Positions 7,395 through 64,000 of a DNA stretch of 64,000 nucleotides are shown in pieces; the stretch's first letter is position 1; each line of letters begins with the position of its first letter. The notes beneath the pieces are model-generated. The model had not been told where the DNA came from and searched no databases. It saw only the letters and a program-made list of their open reading frames with translations. Origin of the DNA: a virus; IMG/VR virus record IMGVR_UViG_3300005466_000025, positions 38,757-102,756 of that record; one strand, 5' to 3'. Both the position numbers and the translations under genes were made by a program.

Positions 7395-8732
7395 ATGTGT
7401 GGTATTGCCGGAATCTATCTTAAGGACCCGGACGAGCAGTATCTTTCACAGAAGGAAATCGAGGATACTGTGGACTGGCTTTTCTGTGGAATTGAAAACA
7501 GAGGAACTCATGCCAGTGGTGTAGCAGTACAGACCACAAATGGAGAGCATTACCTGGAAAAGAGTGATATGCCAGCGTCAAAGTTCATCTTTTGGCGCAG
7601 GGATATTCCCTCAAACCCTAGGATTATTCTTCAGCATACCCGTTGGGCAACAAAGGGTAAGCCAGAGAATCTCCTGAATAATCATCCGATTGCGTATGAG
7701 AATGTCATTGCGATTCACAATGGTCATATCTCAAATGACGATGAGCTATTTGAGAGTGAGTCACTGAATAGAATCGCGGAGGTTGACTCCGAGATTATTC
7801 CGGCTCTGCTTCACAAATATACCTTTGAGAATCCAAAGGAAGCCCTGGAAAAGATGATTGGTGGATTCGCAATTGCGGCCATTGATGATCGAAATCCTGG
7901 AACACTTCTGCTTGCAAAAGGTACAAGCTCACCGCTTGTATTCATTGAAACAGATGGAATGTTCATGTGGGCATCTGAGCAGAAATTCCTAGAGGATGCC
8001 CTGCTTTATGGAATGGGCTATGAATCAAAGCCCGGTGAATTCCATAACGTTGCATATGGACGGTATGCACTGATTAATGGCGATGAAATGACTGTTGCTG
8101 ATTTCAGTCCTGCATACAAGACATATGTTTCCACTCCGTATGCTAGTTCGTGGGCAGATAGATCAGTATCCGTTCCTACTGGCGGGGAATATCGTGCAGC
8201 CGAGGGTTGGTATGACATGAATGCCAGGGATAAGTGTGACGAATGCTTTATCTGGTACCCGGCATATCAGCTAAATAAGCACGGCAATGATCGCTATTGT
8301 GATCATTGTGAGGTTAAGCTATTCGATATTCTTCCGAATGGTACTCGGGTGCTTAAGTCAACGAAAAAGCTCTCAAGAAAGGAGAGAAAGCGTCAGCGGC
8401 GGGAAGCCGCACGTAAATTTCAGGAGAGTAAAAGGAAAGCGGAGTCTGCTCCGAAGGAAGTAACTACAATTGCTGATGCCTTGGATCAGGAGCATTGGCA
8501 TGTATGTGAACTAGTTGCAAATCACTATGGAACTAAGAAGGAATTCGTTGACTTTCTTCTGTTCAGTGATCATGACATTGAGGACTATGATGATGCCAAT
8601 CTGATGCAGATGTTCCTGGAATTCCAGGATAAGTATCAGGAGTTTCTTACTGAGGTAAGTGCTGATACGGATAATCTAATGGAAACCATTGGTATTGCAA
8701 ATGAACTTGATCGGGCGTTTCTGGGACTCTAA
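7395..8732 (+). CDS. class II (Ntn) glutamine amidotransferase
   Basis: N-terminal MCGIAG; RG, HTRWAT, NNHP, HNG, DSE motifs. Confidence 0.9.
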   Translation: MCGIAGIYLKDPDEQYLSQKEIEDTVDWLFCGIENRGTHASGVAVQTTNGEHYLEKSDMPASKFIFWRRDIPSNPRIILQHTRWATKGKPENLLNNHPIAYENVIAIHNGHISNDDELFESESLNRIAEVDSEIIPALLHKYTFENPKEALEKMIGGFAIAAIDDRNPGTLLLAKGTSSPLVFIETDGMFMWASEQKFLEDALLYGMGYESKPGEFHNVAYGRYALINGDEMTVADFSPAYKTYVSTPYASSWADRSVSVPTGGEYRAAEGWYDMNARDKCDECFIWYPAYQLNKHGNDRYCDHCEVKLFDILPNGTRVLKSTKKLSRKERKRQRREAARKFQESKRKAESAPKEVTTIADALDQEHWHVCELVANHYGTKKEFVDFLLFSDHDIEDYDDANLMQMFLEFQDKYQEFLTEVSADTDNLMETIGIANELDRAFLGL

Positions 8733-45281: not shown

Positions 45282-45620
45282 GGGGCCGAACAGGTTTCGA
45301 CGGATAGACGGAGTGAACAGTTTGCATCGGTTTGAGACACCTTAATCTCACGGTAGAAAATAAATGCAGATAATACATCTGACCTGACTGTTTCTAAGTC
45401 TCGCTTCGGCGCAGCATTTAGAACCGCAACAGTCGCAGTCGCTTAACACTGGTCAACACAAGTTAAGCTGGCGCTCCCGGAAACGGGGCAAAGAAATACT
45501 CTTTCTTAGTTTAAGACGAAACTAAGTGGTGGACCTGATCGCACCAACGGTCGCCCCCAAGATGCTCAAAGAATTGTTTGCAAAGCTAGACGGACCCGAG
45601 TTCGATTCTCGGCGGCTCCA
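45282..45620 (+). ncRNA. ssrA: tmRNA
   Basis: 5' GGGGCCGAACAGGTTTCGAC; 3' T-arm CCGAGTTCGATTCTCGG + CGGCTCCA; G3:U70; resume context ATAAAT-GCA; tag ADNTSDLTVSKSRFGAAFRTATVAVA* at 45366-45446; TGATATACT promoter upstream. Confidence 0.92.
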
Positions 45621-54924: not shown

Positions 54925-55006
54925 GGAACCTCGCATTGGCGTGCTTATGCGGTTTGAACCCGTTGATGGTCGAGAGACCGTGGGAGTTCGACTCTCTCAG
55001 GTTCCG
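54925..55006 (+). tRNA. tRNA-Ser(UGA)
   Basis: GGAACCT/AGGTTCC acceptor, TGA anticodon, long variable arm. Confidence 0.8.
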
Positions 55007-55018
55007 TAGAAATAACAT

Positions 55019-55100
55019 GCGCGAGTGGTGGAACGGTATACACACTAGGCTTAGAACCTAGCGCCCTCCGGGATTGTGGGTTCGACTCCCACCTTGCGTA
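55019..55100 (+). tRNA. tRNA-Leu(UAG)
   Basis: cloverleaf, CTAGG-CTTAGAA-CCTAG. Confidence 0.9.
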
Positions 55101-55105
55101 CTTAT

Positions 55106-55179
55106 GCCCCTCTAACCCAATTGGTAGAGGTATCCGGTTTAAGCCCGGTCAAGTGAGAGTTCGAATCTCTCGGGGGGTA
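55106..55179 (+). tRNA. tRNA-Leu(UAA), short variable arm
   Basis: cloverleaf, 74 nt. Confidence 0.9.
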
Positions 55180-55184
55180 CTAAT

Positions 55185-55268
55185 GTCGATCTGGTGAAAT
55201 AGGTAGACACGCTAGCTTGAGGGGCTAGTTCCAGAAATGGAGTGCGGGTTCGACTCCCGCGTTCGACA
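55185..55268 (+). tRNA. tRNA-Leu(GAG)
   Basis: CTAGC-TTGAGGG-GCTAG, long variable arm. Confidence 0.9.
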
Positions 55269-55375
55269 CTATGAAATTAATGACGTTACAGCAAGCACAA
55301 GCTATGAAAATTGCAGAATTTAATTCCCTTTTTAAGGACGTAATTTTCACAGCAAAACGCGGCGGAATTAAATTT

Positions 55376-55453
55376 GCATCTTAGCCCAAGGTGGGCACGG
55401 TGGCTGTAACCCACCCGTCTAAGACATGGTAGGTTCGATTCCTACAGGATGCA
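55376..55453 (+). tRNA. tRNA-Tyr(GUA)
   Basis: GGTGG-CTGTAAC-CCACC. Confidence 0.85.
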
Positions 55454-55461
55454 CTTAAATT

Positions 55462-55857
55462 ATGAAGAATAACATCATCATCCTCACGCTTGTTGGAATA
55501 ATTGGATTGATGGCTGTTATCACAGTTTATTCCCTGACAAGTAAGACGGAAAAGGCACCAAAGGTTGCCAGGATAACAACATCATCAACCACAAGGGAAA
55601 TTAATAAGTTCTTTAGCAATGCGAGTGTTGAAGTTGTATCTAATCAAGTTGTTTGGAGTCTTAACAAGACTGATCTATTGGAGGAGACGGCATATGCGGC
55701 GGCTCGGGCGGATACTAAGGTGGAGAAGATTGGCTTTAGGAAATACTTTTTGTCCCAAGGCGGTGTAATCTATAGACAAGTGTGCTATAATCTACATGCG
55801 TTTGATGAGGCATGGTCGCTAGGATATTGTGTACATAGGAATATAGAGAAGGGTTAG
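55462..55857 (+). CDS. membrane-anchored hypothetical protein
   Basis: N-terminal TM. Confidence 0.6.
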   Translation: MKNNIIILTLVGIIGLMAVITVYSLTSKTEKAPKVARITTSSTTREINKFFSNASVEVVSNQVVWSLNKTDLLEETAYAAARADTKVEKIGFRKYFLSQGGVIYRQVCYNLHAFDEAWSLGYCVHRNIEKG

Positions 55858-55859
55858 AA

Positions 55860-55922
55860 ATGGAATTCGGTCTGTTGGGTCTTATATTACTTATCATCAT
55901 TATCGTTTTAATTGTAAGATAA
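55860..55922 (+). CDS. 20-aa hydrophobic peptide MEFGLLGLILLIIIIVLIVR
   Basis: GAAGGG RBS, single TM. Confidence 0.4.
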   Translation: MEFGLLGLILLIIIIVLIVR

Positions 55923-55925
55923 CAC

Positions 55926-56013
55926 GGAATGGCAAGCCGATGGTTGGCGACGGCACTCCCCTGCTAAGGGAGCGAGCTTAAAAGCCTTGTGGGATCGTTC
56001 CCCACCCTTTCCG
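55926..56013 (+). tRNA. tRNA-Ser(GCU)
   Basis: CTCCC-CTGCTAA-GGGAG, long arm, atypical T-loop. Confidence 0.85.
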
Positions 56014-56016
56014 CTC

Positions 56017-58556: not shown

Positions 58557-58599
58557 TAAAGTCGCCCCACAGGGGCAGAATCTTTGCTATAGTTCTTGG

Positions 58600-58672
58600 T
58601 GCGCGTTGGAGAAGCGGTTACCTCGCAAGCTTCATAAGCTTGAGAACCCTGGTTCGAATCCAGGACGCGCTA
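58600..58672 (+). tRNA. tRNA-Met(CAU), initiator-like
   Basis: 1:72 mismatch, A11:U24, but lacks the three G-C anticodon pairs. Confidence 0.8.
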
Positions 58673-58673
58673 C

Positions 58674-58703
58674 TTGACAAGGGACGGTGAAGTATGCTAC
58701 ACT
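58674..58703 (+). promoter_or_regulatory. sigma70/SigA-type promoter for the main tRNA array
   Basis: TTGACA-N18-TACACT with extended TG. Confidence 0.7.
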
Positions 58704-58754
58704 TTGTCGAAATGGGGATACGTCCCCGAGAAACTTGACAACTTAGTAGGTCAT

Positions 58755-58828
58755 CTGGATGTAGGAAAGCTTGGCAATCCGTCTGCTTTGGGAGCAGAAG
58801 ACCGCTGGTTCGAATCCAGCCATCCGGA
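58755..58828 (+). tRNA. tRNA-Pro(UGG)
   Basis: cloverleaf, G37. Confidence 0.9.
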
Positions 58829-58945
58829 CTGTTGCGACTAATCTAGATACGTCGCAATCGTGAGTGGTGACCCGTTAATTCACCACCGTTACCCAATAGG
58901 CGTTGTATTGGGGGTGCCCCCGCCTACCAAAATGTGGGGTATTAT

Positions 58946-59020
58946 CTGGGTGTAGCTCAGCTTGGTCAGAGTAATCGCCTTGGACGCGAGAAGTCGCAGG
59001 TTCGAATCCTGCTGCCCAGA
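58946..59020 (+). tRNA. tRNA-Pro(UGG), A37 variant
   Basis: cloverleaf, loop CTTGGAC. Confidence 0.85.
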
Positions 59021-59025
59021 CTGGA

Positions 59026-59071
59026 AGCAACTGTGTGGATACGTAAAAGTGTTGCTGAAAGTAAGTCCACA
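59026..59071 (+). ncRNA. nested-pseudoknot spacer RNA, copy 1
   Basis: P1 AGCAAC/GTTGCT, P2 TGTGGAT/GTCCACA, P3 AC/GT. Confidence 0.5.
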
Positions 59072-59075
59072 ACCC

Positions 59076-59151
59076 GATGGTATAGTGAAGTCAGGCCTAT
59101 CACGTCTCCCTGTCAAGGAGAAGAACACGGGTTCGAATCCCGTTATCATCG
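59076..59151 (+). tRNA. tRNA-Asp(GUC)
   Basis: cloverleaf. Confidence 0.9.
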
Positions 59152-59220
59152 CTAAAGAGAGTCCCTTCGATCCCTGGACGGACGCGCGCCTAGAGGTAAG
59201 ACGCAATACTCTCTTAACTA

Positions 59221-59292
59221 GCAGCAATAATTCAGTGGTAGAATGTCTGCTTGCCAAGCAGAATGTCGTGAGTTCGAATCTCACTTGTTGCT
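59221..59292 (+). tRNA. tRNA-Gly(GCC)
   Basis: cloverleaf. Confidence 0.9.
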
Positions 59293-59375
59293 CTTATCTG
59301 CCTAAGTCAGTCCTCGGCGTATGGCGAGAGGAATATGGGAGCCTGGAACCCATAGGTAAAAAATGCACGGCAAAT

Positions 59376-59447
59376 GAGTCGGAAGTATCTGGTGATATCC
59401 CTGGGCTGTGACTCCGGGCGGGTAGGGTTCGATCCCCTAACGACTCT
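59376..59447 (+). tRNA. tRNA-His(GUG), atypical
   Basis: GTG anticodon and T-arm present; no clear G-1:C73. Confidence 0.6.
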
Positions 59448-59517
59448 TAGTGGTTCATGCCTTGCCTGCAAGGGCGGAAAGAACGGATACTACAAGGCCC
59501 GTCACCACTAATTTTAA

Positions 59518-59590
59518 GCTTCCTTATTGTTAATGGTTAGCAAACGTGCCTTCCAAGCATGGAGTGTCAGTTCAAATCTGACAGGAAGCT
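59518..59590 (+). tRNA. tRNA-Gly(UCC)
   Basis: cloverleaf. Confidence 0.85.
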
Positions 59591-59595
59591 CTCAA

Positions 59596-59668
59596 GTCTC
59601 TATAGCTCAGTGGAAAAGAGCAACGGGTTTCTACCCCGTGAGCCTAGGTTCGAATCCTAGTAGGGACT
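59596..59668 (+). tRNA. tRNA-Arg(UCU)
   Basis: cloverleaf. Confidence 0.9.
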
Positions 59669-59791
59669 CTGTGAATAAGATTCGGCGCAGGGCGTACCTT
59701 GGCGCGGCAACAGAACAAGTGCGGGACTTACCGGGAAGTACAAGCAACTAGGCGAGACGGCGCTGAACGGGAGAAAGTCCCTCCCAAATAT

Positions 59792-59866
59792 GGAACATTA
59801 GCTAAAATGGACAAAGGCACCTGGCTCTTAACCAGGAGATTCTAGGTTCGATCCCTAGATGTTCCA
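59792..59866 (+). tRNA. tRNA-Lys(CUU)
   Basis: cloverleaf. Confidence 0.9.
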
Positions 59867-59868
59867 CT

Positions 59869-59966
59869 TTATTAACTCCCTGGATGGGTATCTGGCTCGA
59901 AACCAGTGTAATAAGAAATGGTGTTCTCCGCGGAACGTAGAGAGTTCGATTCTCTCCGGTTGATAA
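59869..59966 (+). ncRNA. tRNA-like RNA, CGA (Ser) loop, abnormal D and variable regions
   Basis: terminal stem, CTGG-CTCGAAA-CCAG, canonical T-arm GAGAG-TTCGATT-CTCTC. Confidence 0.55.
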
Positions 59967-59971
59967 AACTT

Positions 59972-60045
59972 GCCCCTCTAGCCCAATTGGCAGAGGCACG
60001 GCACTCAAAACGCCGACAGTCTGAGTTCGAATCTCAGGTGGGGTA
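59972..60045 (+). tRNA. tRNA-Leu(CAA), short variable arm
   Basis: cloverleaf, 74 nt. Confidence 0.9.
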
Positions 60046-60047
60046 CT

Positions 60048-60299
60048 ATGAAACACCTAATGAAATTTGAAGCTGATTGGTGTGGCCCATGTCATGCCAT
60101 TAGACCGCTAGTTGAAAAGATTGCGGATGAGAATGAACTAGATATAGTGGTGGTTGATATTGATAAGGACAGTGACGTTGCCACCCTGTATGGAGTCGCC
60201 TCAATTCCAACAATCATTTTGATTGAGGATGGTTCAGAAGTAGCAAGGCATATTGGTTCCGCGCCAAAATCCACAATAGAAAAGAACTTGAATTTATAG
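60048..60299 (+). CDS. trxA: thioredoxin
   Basis: WCGPC, SIPT. Confidence 0.92.
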   Translation: MKHLMKFEADWCGPCHAIRPLVEKIADENELDIVVVDIDKDSDVATLYGVASIPTIILIEDGSEVARHIGSAPKSTIEKNLNL

Positions 60300-60374
60300 A
60301 CTAGTACGCCCTCTGGCTGATAACCAGTTGAAAGGCTATGCGGATACAAAATGGTTCGAATCCATTCTAGTCTA
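60298..60374 (+). ncRNA. D-armless tRNA-Ile(GAU)-like RNA
   Basis: AGACTAG/CTAGTCT acceptor, CTGG-CTGATAA-CCAG, T-arm; only 8 nt where the D-arm should be. Confidence 0.65.
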
Positions 60375-60450
60375 CTGGGTAAGGAATTTGTTAAAAAGGG
60401 TCGATTCCCACCCCAAACTTGAAATCTTGTGCTATAATCCTTAGCACACA

Positions 60451-60587
60451 AGGGGAGATATGGGTTAAACTGTATCTTCCCACCATGCCTCTCACAGTCT
60501 TACGGCTGTCAGAGGCTCCTGGCCCCCAGTACCCTAACGGGGAAAAGGGCAGCCTGGAAGGAGAGGGGTAAAAGCCTCTCCTTCCCC
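60451..60587 (+). ncRNA. unknown multi-hairpin RNA downstream of a TGCTATAAT promoter
   Basis: GGGAGATAT/GTATCTTCC, GCCTCT..ACAGTC/GGCTGT..AGAGGC, GGAAGGAGAGG/CCTCTCCTTCC. Confidence 0.45.
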
Positions 60588-60594
60588 CAAACTT

Positions 60595-60667
60595 AGGCAA
60601 TTAGCTCAGCCGGGAGAGCGCCGTTCTTACAAATCGGAGGCCGGGGGATCGAAGCCCTCATTGCCTA
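60595..60667 (+). tRNA. tRNA-Val(UAC)
   Basis: cloverleaf, T-loop ATCGAAG. Confidence 0.85.
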
Positions 60668-60671
60668 TCAA

Positions 60672-60743
60672 GTCAAAGTGACCGAGCGGATAGGTATGAG
60701 TCTGCAAAACTCATTCACGCTGGTTCGAATCCAGTCTTTGACT
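60672..60743 (+). tRNA. tRNA-Cys(GCA)
   Basis: cloverleaf, U73. Confidence 0.9.
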
Positions 60744-60776
60744 CTTCCTTTTCCTAGGATAAAAAGGAGGTACCAT

Positions 60777-60869
60777 ATGACAGCAATTAAACCAGGAAAG
60801 CTTTCGACACTTACTGTCGCCTGGACTCCGACCTGGACCGCTAATTGGTCGCCAGTCTGGTCAATGTAA
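60777..60869 (+). CDS. 30-aa Trp-periodic peptide
   Basis: AAAGGAGGT RBS; MTAIKPGKLSTLTVAWTPTWTANWSPVWSM. Confidence 0.6.
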   Translation: MTAIKPGKLSTLTVAWTPTWTANWSPVWSM

Positions 60870-60960
60870 GTCAAGAGATGGGTTAGGTATTTTCTAGATA
60901 AATCCAGCATTCAAGGCCGCGCCTTTGCCTAACGAGGGAAGTAAAATGCGGTCAATAAAT

Positions 60961-61032
60961 GGGGCTGTAAGCTAATCAGGAAACTACCTGCTTTGCACGC
61001 AGGAATACGGGGAGCATAACCCCGCCGCTCCA
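60961..61032 (+). tRNA. tRNA-Ala(UGC)
   Basis: G3:U70, TGC anticodon, atypical T-loop AGCATAA. Confidence 0.8.
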
Positions 61033-61033
61033 C

Positions 61034-61086
61034 TCCCTTCAAGTAGAGATACCAAGTGATCATGGTGAGGGAAACTAAAGTCTCTA
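61034..61086 (+). ncRNA. nested-pseudoknot spacer RNA, copy 2
   Basis: P1 TCCCTT/GAGGGA, P2 TAGAGAT/GTCTCTA, P3 ACCA/TGGT. Confidence 0.55.
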
Positions 61087-61091
61087 TACAT

Positions 61092-61163
61092 TCCAGCTTG
61101 GCGCAAAGGTAGCGCAATCGGCTGTTAACCGAGAGGTTCTAGGTTCGAATCCTAGAGTTGGAG
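61092..61163 (+). tRNA. tRNA-Asn(GUU)
   Basis: cloverleaf. Confidence 0.9.
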
Positions 61164-61235
61164 CTAGCGGAGGGGCATATGGACAGACTCCGTATGTTAA
61201 ATGAGGGGCGTATCGCCCCCGCCCCAATGCCACAT

Positions 61236-61307
61236 TCCTCAGTAGCTTAGTAGTAGAGCAGCAGTCTCATAAGCTGTAAGGCAATGGTGCAACTCCATTC
61301 TGAGGGA
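61236..61307 (+). tRNA. tRNA-Met/Ile2(CAU)
   Basis: GCAGT-CTCATAA-GCTGT. Confidence 0.8.
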
Positions 61308-61341
61308 CTATATTGAACCACAGCTTGTGTTATAATATAGC

Positions 61342-61650
61342 ATGAGCAAGCAGGCAGAATATTCGTCTAAATGGTACAATAATAATAAGCAGTTGCAGAA
61401 GCAAAGAGTTGACAGTAGAAGAAGGGAAATGACCCAATTTCTGTTCTCTCTAAAGAAAAATAAGAAGTGTGCGTTCTGTTCAGAGAGTGAGCCAGCTTGT
61501 CTAGACTGGCATCACACTAGAGATAAGATCGTAGATGTAAGTCAGATTCCAAAGATGGGTTGGGGTAAGGAGAAAGCATTAGAAGAAATTTCAAAGTGCA
61601 TTCTTGTTTGCGCCAACTGTCACAGGAAACTACACGCCGGATTAGTTTAA
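61342..61650 (+). CDS. HNH endonuclease, leaderless
   Basis: CAFC..CLDWHH..KCILVCANCHRKLH; last codons overlap tRNA-Thr. Confidence 0.85.
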   Translation: MSKQAEYSSKWYNNNKQLQKQRVDSRRREMTQFLFSLKKNKKCAFCSESEPACLDWHHTRDKIVDVSQIPKMGWGKEKALEEISKCILVCANCHRKLHAGLV

Positions 61651-61707
61651 CTGGTAAAACACGACTCTTGTAAAGTTGTGAACAGGGTTCAAGTCCTTGA
61701 TTCGGCT
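61636..61707 (+). tRNA. tRNA-Thr(UGU)
   Basis: GCCGGAT/ATTCGGC, CGACT-CTTGTAA-AGTTG. Confidence 0.85.
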
Positions 61708-61708
61708 T

Positions 61709-61732
61709 AGGGTTCGATTCCTAGACGTGGCT
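61709..61732 (+). pseudogene. orphan tRNA 3' fragment (T-arm + acceptor strand)
   Basis: GGTTCGATTCCTAG-ACGTGGC-T. Confidence 0.55.
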
Positions 61733-61827
61733 CTTATGCTATAATGTTCCCTTAGGCTCCTAGCTCCTAAAATTGGACGTGAGCCTACGCGCAGGTAAAG
61801 GCATGGCGTAACAGATGCCTTGTGTTT

Positions 61828-61901
61828 GCACCTTGGCAGGCCGGTTGTTTGGAGGTATCTTATAAGTATCTTTAAGCTTGGTTCGACTCCAAGAGGGTGT
61901 A
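61828..61901 (+). tRNA. tRNA-Ile(UAU)
   Basis: GCACCTT/AGGGTGT, GGTAT-CTTATAA-GTATC, canonical T-arm. Confidence 0.75.
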
Positions 61902-61904
61902 TAA

Positions 61905-62072
61905 ATGGAATATACAAAAACACAGTGGGAGTCATTCCCGACAACAAAGGATGCGGAAGTTATTTCATGCCAGTATTGTGAGAACGAAACTGTTGTGAAA
62001 GCTAACAAATTCGTAACACGGTACACATGTCCTACGTGCTATAGTGTACCTAAGTTAAGCAAGCGCAAGTAA
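61905..62072 (+). CDS. 55-aa zinc-ribbon protein
   Basis: CQYC...CPTC. Confidence 0.55.
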   Translation: MEYTKTQWESFPTTKDAEVISCQYCENETVVKANKFVTRYTCPTCYSVPKLSKRK

Positions 62073-62075
62073 CAT

Positions 62076-62146
62076 GGCCCTATCGTCTAATGGTAGGACG
62101 GGTGCCTTTCAAGCATCTAACCGGGGATCGTAACCCCGTAGGGCTA
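62076..62146 (+). tRNA. tRNA-Glu(UUC)
   Basis: cloverleaf, T-loop ATCGTAA. Confidence 0.85.
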
Positions 62147-62150
62147 CTAA

Positions 62151-62222
62151 CGCTCATTAGCTCAACGGAAAGAGCATTGGTCTTCGAAACCAAGAGTGAA
62201 GGTTCGATTCCTTCATGGGCGT
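62151..62222 (+). tRNA. tRNA-Arg(UCG)
   Basis: TTGGT-CTTCGAA-ACCAA. Confidence 0.85.
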
Positions 62223-62377
62223 CTGGCAGGAAGTCACATTTAAGTTGAAGTGACTGATAGTAGATGAAGATGGAAGATGGAGGTAGAAGTAGTACAGTCG
62301 TAGTTCTGCATCATCGACTTCCTGCCAATTTGTTTGGTGGACCGGGACTCCTGGGTAAGAGTAAAAACTGCCCAATA

Positions 62378-62449
62378 TCCTCCGTAGCGTACTGGCAGCG
62401 CACACGCCTTTTAAGCGACGAGGACAGGGTTCGATTCCCTGCGGGGGGA
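62378..62449 (+). tRNA. tRNA-Lys(UUU)
   Basis: cloverleaf with a weak anticodon stem. Confidence 0.8.
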
Positions 62450-62450
62450 C

Positions 62451-62503
62451 TGGCGAAGGTGTCGTTCGAATCGACTATGGTGTAACCTGGAAGCACATCG
62501 CCA
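62451..62503 (+). ncRNA. circularly permuted tRNA-elbow mimic (T-arm before D-arm, Y-RNA/YrlA-like)
   Basis: TGGCGA/TCGCCA closing stem; GTCG-TTCGAAT-CGAC; GTGT-AACCTGGAA-GCAC. Confidence 0.6.
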
Positions 62504-62578
62504 TGAATCCATGCGACGGCATGGGGGTACCAGGGTATCTGGTTGTTCGTCGGGGTCAACCTTAATCAATCCGACCAT

Positions 62579-62650
62579 TTCTCAGTCGTCTAATTGGCAG
62601 GACAGCGGACTTTGAATCCGCGAATCTGGGTTCGAATCCTAGCAGAGAAA
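62579..62650 (+). tRNA. tRNA-Gln(UUG)
   Basis: cloverleaf. Confidence 0.9.
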
Positions 62651-62717
62651 CTACACCCCTCCGAATGGGTCATAGACTAGTCCGGCTACCCCTGAAATAG
62701 AGCCGGGAGGGGATCAA

Positions 62718-62790
62718 TGCTTCTTAGCTCAGAGGATAGAGCGCGTCCCTGCGAAGGACGAGGCCATAGGTTCGATTCCTATAGGGGCAA
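62718..62790 (+). tRNA. tRNA-Arg(GCG)
   Basis: CGTCC-CTGCGAA-GGACG. Confidence 0.85.
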
Positions 62791-62791
62791 T

Positions 62792-62995
62792 ATGATAATT
62801 AAATTAGGACCAATAGTGATTATGGATTCCAAGACAAGGGAGGCCTATAGGGAACTCCTAACAGAGGCATATTTGGTTCATCAAAATATTTGGTTTTCAC
62901 AGGATTGGGCGCAATCTGAGCAGGAAATTAAGAATGCAGATTCCCATCTTTCTGAAGCAATTTCACATGTACCAGCAAGTGAATTAGAAATTTAG
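62792..62995 (+). CDS. hypothetical protein
   Basis: ATG 2 nt after the tRNA, 67 aa. Confidence 0.5.
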   Translation: MIIKLGPIVIMDSKTREAYRELLTEAYLVHQNIWFSQDWAQSEQEIKNADSHLSEAISHVPASELEI

Positions 62996-63348
62996 AGTGG
63001 AAGACTTGTGCGGCGGAATTCCAACACCGTCGAGGAAGTTCGGGCCACATGAATGCGCTAGACTTGCGAGGAGGCGCAGGAAACGAGCAGAAAAAGTGGG
63101 AGCGGTCGTAAGCTAACGATGGGAAACCGGGAGAAATAGCTGGCCGCGCCTTACCACAAATTCGTCGGTGTGTAACCTCAAGACGCCCTTAGTCTAAGGG
63201 GCATGGTAGAGGGCAGCTAATAATTTAGCCATATGGAGTCATAGTGTCCCTTCTCTACGAAGGTGGTAAGCCCTGAGGTCACGTACAGGCGCTCCATATG
63301 AGACAGATGCAAGTCCACGACAGAATCCCGGCTACGAAACTCTAAATT
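62989..63348 (+). ncRNA. rnpB: RNase P RNA (ribozyme)
   Basis: P1 AATTTAGAGT/ACTCTAAATT; P2 GACTTGT/GCAAGTC; P3; CR-I GAGGAAGTTCGGGC; P4 pairing with CCCGGCT; L15 GGT; CR-IV AGACAGATG; CR-V ACAGAATCCCGGCTA. Confidence 0.88.
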
Positions 63349-63399
63349 AACAAAATATTGACCTACTAAGTTGAAATTTGTGTTATAGTAATCAAACAC

Positions 63400-63470
63400 A
63401 GGCTGTTGGTGTAACAGCAGCATGAACGGCTCCAACCCGTTTGGCGAGGGTGCAAATCCTTCACGGCCTG
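63400..63470 (+). tRNA. tRNA-Trp(CCA)
   Basis: cloverleaf, G73; promoter TGTTATAGT upstream. Confidence 0.85.
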
Positions 63471-63510
63471 CTAGTCCTTGGCCCCCGGACTTTTAAAATA
63501 GGGGCAACAT

Positions 63511-63584
63511 GTTGATGTAGCTCAGCTAGGTAGAGCATTCGGTTGAAGCCCGCAAGGTCACAGGTTCGAGTCCTGTCGTCAACA
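63511..63584 (+). tRNA. tRNA-Phe(GAA)
   Basis: cloverleaf, G37. Confidence 0.9.
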
Positions 63585-63589
63585 CTCTT

Positions 63590-63662
63590 GTTCCATTGGT
63601 CTAACGGTCAGGACGCCGCCCTCTCAAGGCGGAGGCTATGGGTTCGAATCCCATATGGAATA
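63590..63662 (+). tRNA. tRNA-Glu(CUC)
   Basis: cloverleaf. Confidence 0.9.
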
Positions 63663-63671
63663 TGAGGCAAG

Positions 63672-63743
63672 TAGGTTGTGGTGTAATGGTTAGCACACCG
63701 GGGTTTGACCCGGAGGAGCCGCGTTCGAATCGGGTCAGCCGAA
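63672..63743 (+). tRNA. degenerate tRNA (UUG-like, 6-nt anticodon loop)
   Basis: D-arm and T-loop intact; CCGGG-GTTTGA-CCCGG; mismatches in acceptor and T stems. Confidence 0.5.
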
Positions 63744-63809
63744 AGCTTCAACTAAAAGAGTAAATTTCGGGATTTAACTACTCTTTCAAAAAACTTTTAA
63801 ATCCCACTT

Positions 63810-63881
63810 TCCACAGTCGTCTAACGGGTAGGACGCTGGACTCTGAATCCAGTAATCTAGGTTCGAATCCTAGTAGTGGAG
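63810..63881 (+). tRNA. tRNA-Gln(CUG)
   Basis: CTGGA-CTCTGAA-TCCAG. Confidence 0.9.
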
Positions 63882-63907
63882 CTAACAGCCGGATGAATGT
63901 AAGTAAT

Positions 63908-63934
63908 AAGGTCCCTTCGGGGGCCTTTTTTGTT
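63908..63934 (+). terminator. rho-independent terminator ending the tRNA array
   Basis: AAGGTCCC-TTCG-GGGGCCTT + T run. Confidence 0.85.
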
Positions 63935-63967
63935 ATCCTTTTAGTGAGCTACTGAAAGGAGGCAAAC

Positions 63968-64000
63968 ATGGCTGTAGAGCTATCACTAGATAGAAAGGCA
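63968..64000 (+). CDS. start of next gene (truncated by the window edge)
   Basis: GAAAGGAGG RBS + ATG. Confidence 0.5.
   Translation, partial: MAVELSLDRKA

Follow-up and report, generated by a model that had tools for sequence, protein, structure and literature searches.

We analyzed a window of 64,000 nucleotides (nt), the final 64 kb of the 102,756-base-pair (bp) IMG/VR virus record IMGVR_UViG_3300005466_000025 (a phage genome of about 103 kb), in which 35 transfer RNA (tRNA) or tRNA-like genes, all on the + strand and covering 20 of the 20 amino acids, lie in two clusters within 9 kb. With so many closely spaced tRNA genes on one strand of a phage genome, the locus is a phage tRNA gene array, and its main cluster contains a remodeled homolog of bacterial ribonuclease P (RNase P) RNA. 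A phage tRNA operon cluster equipped with its own remodeled RNase P RNA is a recurrent and apparently unpublished arrangement; our literature searches found no publication on a phage-encoded RNase P RNA.

An earlier note on this DNA, made from the sequence alone, had read the array as a polycistronic source of about 15 different small RNAs, released from the spacers between the tRNAs, with an RNase P RNA in the same array. Our results point to a translation-support region made up of a tRNA array with several promoters, its own RNase P RNA and a few real RNA elements among spacers that are mostly leftovers, a reading to which we give a probability of about 0.6. The tRNA and tRNA-like genes would be transcribed in short polycistronic units from several extended -10 promoters, with one terminator closing the region. 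The precursors would be cut at the 5' end by RNase P and at the 3' end by an RNase Z-type enzyme, after which the host would add CCA. The phage would supply a bacterial type-A RNase P RNA in which the catalytic core is kept while the specificity domain and the P18 region are remodeled. Most spacers would be by-products of processing, with promoters, tRNA fragments or ordinary hairpins in them, and a minority would be real RNA elements, namely A, B and C, which are conserved in a relative, and E1 and E2, which are exceptionally stable. In place of fifteen, the array may hold some three to five genuine non-tRNA RNA elements.

An RNase P RNA homolog within the array

The presence of an RNase P RNA in the array, as the earlier note had claimed, was confirmed in the form of a remodeled homolog with covarying orthologs, a derivative of the bacterial type A (Table 1). 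The covariance model R1 was built from the RNase P RNAs of three other phage tRNA arrays (L001, L037 and L013), with the window excluded. Over both strands of the window, R1 gave one match, at 62989-63352, which was full length and scored 31.5 bits with an E-value of about 5e-9, the E-values of R1 being rough. The helices P1 (10 bp), P2 (6 bp) and P3 (6 bp) are present, the motifs of conserved regions (CR) I and V are able to form P4 with its bulged U, and there is a CR-IV-like motif, so that the catalytic core characteristic of the Rfam family RF00010 can be recognized. R1 aligns P1 and P4 as paired, and also P15 (63176-63179/63209-63212) and the GGU of its internal loop (63205-63207), which in bacterial RNase P RNA pairs with the 3' end of the tRNA. 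Around 100 nt between the strands of P5, where the specificity domain (P7-P12, CR-II and CR-III) would be expected, could not be aligned to R1, nor could an insertion of 87 nt at the position of P18.

Rfam does not report this RNA. No RNase P was found at the gathering threshold or at E<=10 in the tRNA region or in a 501-nt slice covering 62900-63400, the RF00010 model had no match in the whole phage even at E<=10, and the homolog does not reach the RF00010 gathering score of 100 bits.

Three relatives, G006, G007 and G008, were located through their DNA polymerases (55-58% identity). The ortholog in G006 adjoins the second array of that phage and scores 24.8 bits with R1, while G007 has an ortholog that R1 misses. 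When the three orthologs are aligned, P1 and P2 have changed at nearly all positions with pairing intact throughout, and the fourth pair of P3 is C-G, A-U or U-A. Because the pairing of P1, P2 and P3 has been kept despite the change in sequence, the alignment argues for a maintained structured RNA and not for a relic. Blocks within the specificity-domain region are also conserved among the three orthologs; no fold could be derived from them. We found no RnpA and no CCA-adding enzyme among the genes of the phage. Since the phage encodes no RnpA of its own, its RNase P RNA would work with that of the host, a partnership that we regard as somewhat better than an even bet.

RNase P RNAs at other viral loci

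An exact 21-mer of the CR-V region of the window led to a viral contig of 332 kb whose tRNA array encloses a type-A RNase P RNA (189 bits with Rfam), and motif scans gave at least 44 further loci, tRNA-rich in many cases. Of 20 loci scanned with Rfam, eight reached its threshold, and Rfam scores of the other phage RNase P RNA copies were 118-191 bits. R1 gave 23 matches among 45 phage or metagenome loci, again with many tRNA-rich loci, and a terminase was present in two of the five viral records checked. Four of the R1 matches are reduced RNase P-like RNAs (Table 1). An Rfam gathering scan of L008, L044 and L045 did not report the reduced RNAs in them. The L008 and L044 loci have 24-27 tRNAs and a tmRNA (transfer-messenger RNA) each. 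As a side observation, the metagenome locus L008 also contains, beside its 27 tRNAs, tmRNA and RNase P-like RNA, a match to the c-di-GMP-I-GGC riboswitch aptamer at 8417-8497 (64.5 bits, above threshold).

Promoters, terminator and tRNA end signals

Four copies of the extended -10 motif TGTGYTATART are present in the window, where 0.05 would be expected, and each of them is on the + strand within the tRNA region. Looser versions of the motif and one near-consensus sigma-70 site are also present (Table 1), and the looser site at 58585-58593 is located 7 nt upstream of the first tRNA of the main array. The extended -10 motif is also found in G006, upstream of a protein gene beyond its array, and G006 shares the layout in which Gln(CUG) is followed by a terminator and then by a promoter. 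At least six promoter-like sites lie within the main array. The single transcript proposed in the earlier note is therefore not borne out; several internal promoter sites together with a terminator suggest that the array is probably a set of short operons.

RNase P cuts the 5' ends of tRNAs and RNase Z-type enzymes cut the 3' ends of tRNAs that lack CCA, bacterial RNase P prefers U at position -1, and CCA blocks RNase Z. None of the tRNAs in the window encodes CCA, C74 and U75 are each found in 25 of 30, and U(-1) is found in 19 of 30. A matching trailer tally (the last base of the ARAGORN prediction being C and the next base T) is frequent in G006, L044 and L253; only the T is frequent in L041, and the tally deviates in two arrays that probably encode CCA. 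These framing signals fit maturation by RNase P and an RNase Z-type enzyme, as far as established enzymology allows us to infer. As the tRNAs lack CCA and have conserved end signals, cleavage at both ends should free the spacers, which makes the proposed release of spacers by tRNA punctuation plausible; the tRNA ends bear that proposal out, and the release step itself would follow from the known action of the enzymes. C74-U75 could pair (G-C and G-U) with the GGU of P15 in the RNase P RNA while avoiding CCA.

Folding of the spacers

The coordinates of the tRNA genes and of the 15 example spacers put forward in the earlier note were verified. The description of most spacers as compact folds could not be confirmed. 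Against 300 dinucleotide shuffles, only two of the 15 examples had a folding advantage, and the z-scores of the remaining 13 intervals ranged from -1.31 to +0.61, despite ends that had been picked to look stem-like. For the 18 whole spacers of at least 39 nt, the mean z-score was -1.07 versus -0.49 for length-matched coding controls (Mann-Whitney p 0.06), and helices closing these spacers from end to end were not enriched (Fisher p 0.23). Spacers from ten other phage arrays had a mean z-score of -1.46, and the folding of the spacers in the window is ordinary by comparison.

The shuffle test is weak for RNAs of this kind, as the 30 canonical tRNAs of the window average a z-score of only -1.42. 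The difference in folding energy between the sense and the antisense strand is a better-powered test; it was -3.07 kcal/mol for the tRNAs (p 2e-5) and -1.29 kcal/mol for the spacers (p 0.28). No enriched k-mer among the spacers, GATAC included, survived correction for multiple testing, and Rfam, at the gathering threshold and at E<=10 over the region, gave no family for any spacer. Overall, 10 of the 15 examples have neither folding nor conservation in their favor, and the number of about 15 small RNAs is not sustained.

Some spacers contain tRNA fragments. Matches to the tRNA T-arm or to the 3' half of the acceptor stem were seen at 60398-60415, 61709-61735 and 62460-62484, the T-arm-like part being exact at 60398 and 61711 and looser at 62464-62484, which suggests that tRNA genes once present there have left scars through decay or recombination. 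Nested pseudoknots were considered for the spacers at 59022-59075 and 61033-61091, each of which can form two interleaved 6-bp helices, and rejected, as 8 of the other 14 spacers of 39-130 nt have such helix pairs too and 4-7% of shuffles produce them. These two spacers have loop words in common, and the second of them aligns, at a borderline z-score of 3.7, with a G006 spacer 38 nt long.

Conserved elements A, B and C

Local alignment calibrated by shuffling was applied to 357 spacer pairs between the window and G006 (locus L129), and it caught homologies for which plain blastn of the window spacers against G006 gave nothing. Three spacers, designated elements A, B and C, aligned well above the rest (Table 1), all remaining pairs having z-scores of 3.7 or lower. 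Conservation was thus found for these three only, and 12 of the 15 example spacers had no significant match in the sampled part of G006. G006 is a fragment of 35 kb in which the array runs off the contig and the gene order is rearranged, so that missing matches for the other spacers are weak evidence. The spacer between Gln and Arg measures 66 nt in the window and 4 nt in G006.

Element A has a weak consensus structure, and no convincing common fold was obtained. Element B has two stems (59311-59315/59328-59332 and 59334-59339/59349-59354) and an invariant apical loop (59316-59327); between the window and G006, both bases have changed in six of its 13 pairs, and all 13 can still form. A tRNA-Gly lies upstream of it in both phages. 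The model of element B, R3, found only the two known copies in 1.04 Mb of phage loci, and a search with a longer pattern of B gave no match. A 14-mer from the loop of B was also searched for and discarded, with at least 115 matches, all of them due to chance except the one in G006.

In element C, a hairpin at 59683-59706 is followed by 20 nt of conserved single-stranded sequence (59706-59725), and a long-range helix pairs 59723-59729 with 59775-59781. The hairpin has 11 pairs, three of them compensatory and one a conserved G-U, the single strand of 17-20 nt is invariant, and the long-range helix of 6-7 bp has a different sequence in each copy. A third copy was found in L253, an unrelated viral contig of 6 kb, where it immediately precedes the first tRNA that ARAGORN lists in a cluster of 17 tRNAs. 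All three copies of element C run up to the 5' end of a tRNA, a different one each time (Lys, Ala or Gly). R2, the model of element C, scored the three copies at 72-76 bits and had no other credible match in the same 1.04 Mb; on their own members, the models of B and C score 72-98 bits. Matches to the 17-mer of C in bacterial genomes (71 loci) were dismissed as chance, as none exceeded 30 bits with R2, which is about the score of the 17-mer alone.

Two further observations concern element C. Its 59706-59781 part has an ACAGAAC stretch, the 5' strand of the helix and then a GAGAAAGUCC-like stretch leading into the 3' strand, a layout that loosely recalls CR-V and CR-I of RNase P with their order swapped and that may be a coincidence. 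The only weak matches of R2 (E about 0.5) were in the RNase P-like RNAs of L043 and L040.

These comparisons support selection on a minimum of three spacers (A, B and C), with the stems of B and C kept through compensatory changes, and B and C are small, conserved RNA motifs that are linked to phage tRNA operons and apparently undescribed. The minimum-free-energy z-scores of element B are only -0.2 to -0.45 and that of element C is +0.6, so the shuffle test says little about such RNAs. Of the checks proposed in the earlier note, shuffling favors two of the 15 spacers and is a weak test, and homolog comparison favors three of the 15, with covarying stems in B and C. A warning on method follows for similar loci: shuffle z-scores miss real elements of this size, and they do not justify naming every spacer a small RNA.

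Stable elements E1 and E2

The two spacers that did stand out from their shuffles are elements E1 and E2 (Table 1). E1 has a z-score of -5.36 for 60451-60587 and of -5.2 as a whole spacer; with the extended -10 motif at 60428-60438 upstream, it may act as a 5' leader. No homolog of E1 was found. E2 comes directly after tRNA-Arg(UCG) and is followed by a U-rich tract. It has a z-score of -4.39, and the spacer that encloses it (62224-62377) has the largest advantage of sense over antisense folding, -9 kcal/mol. The comparison of window and G006 spacers gave no credible homolog of E2.

Alternative explanations

For elements A, B, C, E1 and E2 together, we place action in cis on the precursor slightly below even odds; they might insulate or stabilize it as hairpins, or form a leader that either presents the tRNA downstream of it or takes RNA polymerase across the structured array. 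Such action is preferred for A, B and C because element C always abuts a tRNA 5' end. It is unlikely, though worth keeping in mind, that A, B, C and perhaps E1 and E2 persist after excision as a few stable trans-acting small RNAs in the manner of RNA C and RNA D of phage T4, and that such RNAs are the purpose of the spacers. The invariant loops on covarying stems would suit such a role, as would the invariant single strand of C, a typical feature of surfaces for binding or pairing, and the occurrence of B and C beside different tRNAs in different phages, in the manner of independent modules. A search of phage DNA (the window and two further stretches of about 8 kb) for targets complementary to the conserved loops gave no more than chance matches, and the constant position of C at a tRNA 5' end fits a leader role equally well. 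The broader proposal that the array is chiefly a factory for about 15 trans-acting small RNAs, serving as decoys for anticodon nucleases, antitoxin mimics or protein sponges, seems to us very improbable. It can draw on the conserved end signals that frame the spacers, on their slight folding advantage over coding controls, on the mean z-score of the ten other arrays, on the conservation of three spacers and on the T4 precedent (PMC3014915), but 13 of the 15 examples behave as their shuffles do, the spacers as a group lack the significant sense-strand bias that the tRNAs have, they share no motif, 12 of 15 have no significant match in the sampled part of G006, where the Gln-Arg spacer has shrunk to 4 nt, some are promoters or tRNA debris, and the phage DNA searched offers no complementary targets. 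We also find it doubtful that the array is a self-contained RNA production unit in which a remodeled RNase P, tuned to C74-U75 precursors, frees the tRNAs together with A, B, C, E1 and E2 as RNAs acting in trans on host factors (for example against tRNA-targeting defenses) and in which C might engage RNase P or RnpA.

Several points weigh against the translation-support reading itself. The RNase P-like RNA has no recognizable T-loop-binding specificity domain, and its R1 score is 31 bits compared with 110-319 bits for canonical phage copies; the G007 ortholog has a CR-V substitution and a U-U mismatch in P4; no convincing promoter precedes element C in the window, which weakens the leader role; B is known from two sequences and C from three; and E1 and E2 have no known homologs. 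Loss of RNase P activity in this lineage is a real if minor chance. The RNA would then be a decaying copy, or one repurposed, for example, to titrate host RnpA, and the negative Rfam results at E<=10, the unalignable specificity domain, the insertion at the P18 position and the defects of the G007 copy, missed by R1, speak for this. A pseudogene would not keep P1, P2 and P3 by compensatory change in three phages whose DNA polymerases are 55-58% identical, the window copy retains CR-I, the CR-IV-like motif, CR-V and P15 with its GGU, and similar reduced forms of about 200 nt recur at other tRNA-rich phage loci. That the likeness of A, B and C between phages comes from recent lateral transfer of DNA, and not from selection on the RNA, is hardly credible. 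The elements lie beside different tRNAs in the two phages and hence have moved, but A, B and C are about 25-30% diverged, comparable to the neighboring tRNAs (73-88% identity), the differences in stems are paired changes while loops are invariant, and the conserved G-U pair of element C marks the sense strand.

Genomic setting

The virus record contains a portal, a DNA polymerase and further phage genes. Its "terminal repeat" is exactly 100 bp long, window positions 63901-64000 being identical to the start of the genome (L003:1-100), and an open reading frame (ORF) that starts at 63969 runs on at the start of the record; we read the repeat as an overlap left by the assembly of a genome that is circular or permuted. 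ARAGORN reported 31 tRNA genes and the tmRNA, and Rfam added tRNA matches at 60298-60374 and 60961-61032 and a tRNA-like match at 54925-55005. ARAGORN missed the last of these, which folds as a type-II (long-arm) tRNA-Ser and shares 87% identity with a tRNA in L023.

The tmRNA gene is at a syntenic position in G006, G007 and G008, the synteny of tmRNA, polymerase and Ser/Leu/Tyr/Ser sub-array is common to these relatives, and the gene order of that sub-array is identical in G006 and G007. Searches with the cytosine methyltransferase or with a neighbor of 717 amino acids gave no useful close relatives, and near and distant DNA searches of GenBank phages gave matches to tRNAs only. Protein-coding genes are also found within the main array. 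The ORF of 30 amino acids is probably a real small protein. Its homolog in G006 has 36 amino acids (L129:9049-9202(-)) and its own consensus promoter, and the two share identical first five residues and a repeated W-T-P.

Table 1. Positions of the features discussed. Coordinates are those of the window unless a locus name is given; z-scores of elements A, B and C refer to the alignment with G006.
Feature	Position	Strand	Remarks
RNase P RNA homolog, type-A derivative	62989..63348	+	model R1; helix coordinates and motifs
Element A	58830-58945	+	spacer between two tRNA-Pro genes; aligned to L129:8448-8551(-), z 5.1
Element B	59294-59375	+	two-hairpin RNA after tRNA-Gly; aligned to L129:7732-7815(-), z 10.2
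Element C	59670-59791	+	ends directly 5' of a tRNA; aligned to L129:8218-8372(-), z 12.8
Element E1	60445..60593	+	multi-hairpin, very stable; between promoter-like site and tRNA-Val
Element E2	62224..62327	+	104-nt hairpin with 12-bp closing stem
TGTGYTATART sites	55781, 60428-60438, 61326-61336, 63379-63389	+	
Looser extended -10 sites	54898, 56890, 58585-58593, 61737-61745	+	
Near-consensus sigma-70 site	58674-58703	+	TTGACA-18-TACACT; sigma-70 scan
Intrinsic terminator ending the array	63908..63927	+	
tmRNA gene	45282..45620	+	ARAGORN; Rfam RF00023, 65 bits; upstream member of the putative translation-support set
First tRNA sub-array, 6 genes	54925..56014	+	Ser(UGA), three Leu, Tyr, Ser(GCU); encloses ORF 55462-55857
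Main array, 29 tRNA or tRNA-like genes	58600..63882	+	26 by ARAGORN, 3 added
tRNA-Met	58600-58672	+	U1-U72 mismatch in the style of an initiator tRNA
Ser(CGA)-like gene	59869-59966	+	from sequence reading; oversized variable region, about 33 nt
Ile(GAU)-like gene	60298-60374	+	Rfam; without a normal D-arm
Ala(UGC)	60961-61032	+	Rfam; G3-U70 but non-canonical T-loop
tRNA listed as '???' by ARAGORN	63672-63743	+	anticodon loop of 6 or 8 nt
Thioredoxin gene in main array	60048..60299	+	Pfam PF00085, 1.2e-19
Small ORF in main array, 30 amino acids	60777-60869	+	Trp-rich; strong ribosome-binding site
HNH endonuclease gene in main array	61342-61650	+	phrog_3106, 4e-19
Small ORFs in main array	61905-62072 and 62822-62995	+	
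Reduced RNase P-like RNAs, about 200-220 nt	L008:8088-8290, L044:11182-11383, L045:2022-2224, L026:2060-2282		R1, 31-47 bits

Comparison with known systems

Mitochondrial tRNA punctuation, in which cuts at tRNA ends free mRNAs and rRNAs from one long transcript, differs from the present array in that the window has several predicted promoters and the pieces freed would be short. The 3'ETS-leuZ of the E. coli glyW-cysT-leuZ operon is a sponge RNA cut from a tRNA precursor that pairs with Hfq-dependent small RNAs; that RNA pairs with its targets, whereas no target pairing was found, in the phage DNA searched, for the elements in the window. RNA C and RNA D of phage T4 (species 1 and 2) are small non-tRNA RNAs from a phage tRNA cluster whose role is unknown (PMC3014915). 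The likeness lies in the setting in a phage tRNA cluster and not in a comparison of sequences, and the T4 RNAs were seen as stable species, whereas the elements of the window are known from conservation and covariation only. GOLLD and ROOL are structured non-coding RNAs near phage or prophage tRNA islands, also of unknown function (PMC12286853). Both have families in Rfam and measure 500-800 nt or longer, whereas A, B and C are 80-120 nt long, and the Rfam scans gave no match to GOLLD or ROOL in the window.

A further comparison is with bacterial type-A RNase P RNA (M1 RNA of E. coli, rnpB; RF00010). The P1-P4 topology is common to both, as are the CR-I, CR-IV and CR-V motifs, the bulged U of P4 and the GGU of P15. 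The window copy differs in being encoded by a phage inside a tRNA array with no phage RnpA, in lacking a match to RF00010 even at E<=10, in its unalignable specificity domain and in the large insertion at P18. RNase P RNA is usually counted among the housekeeping genes of cells. In this phage lineage a remodeled copy has been preserved by compensatory changes beside the tRNA genes, and dozens of other viral contigs have canonical or reduced RNase P RNAs, many of them missed by standard annotation. If this reading is true, phages supply tRNA maturation capacity besides the tRNAs themselves. Their RNase P RNA copies are also natural experiments on how far the ribozyme can be trimmed.

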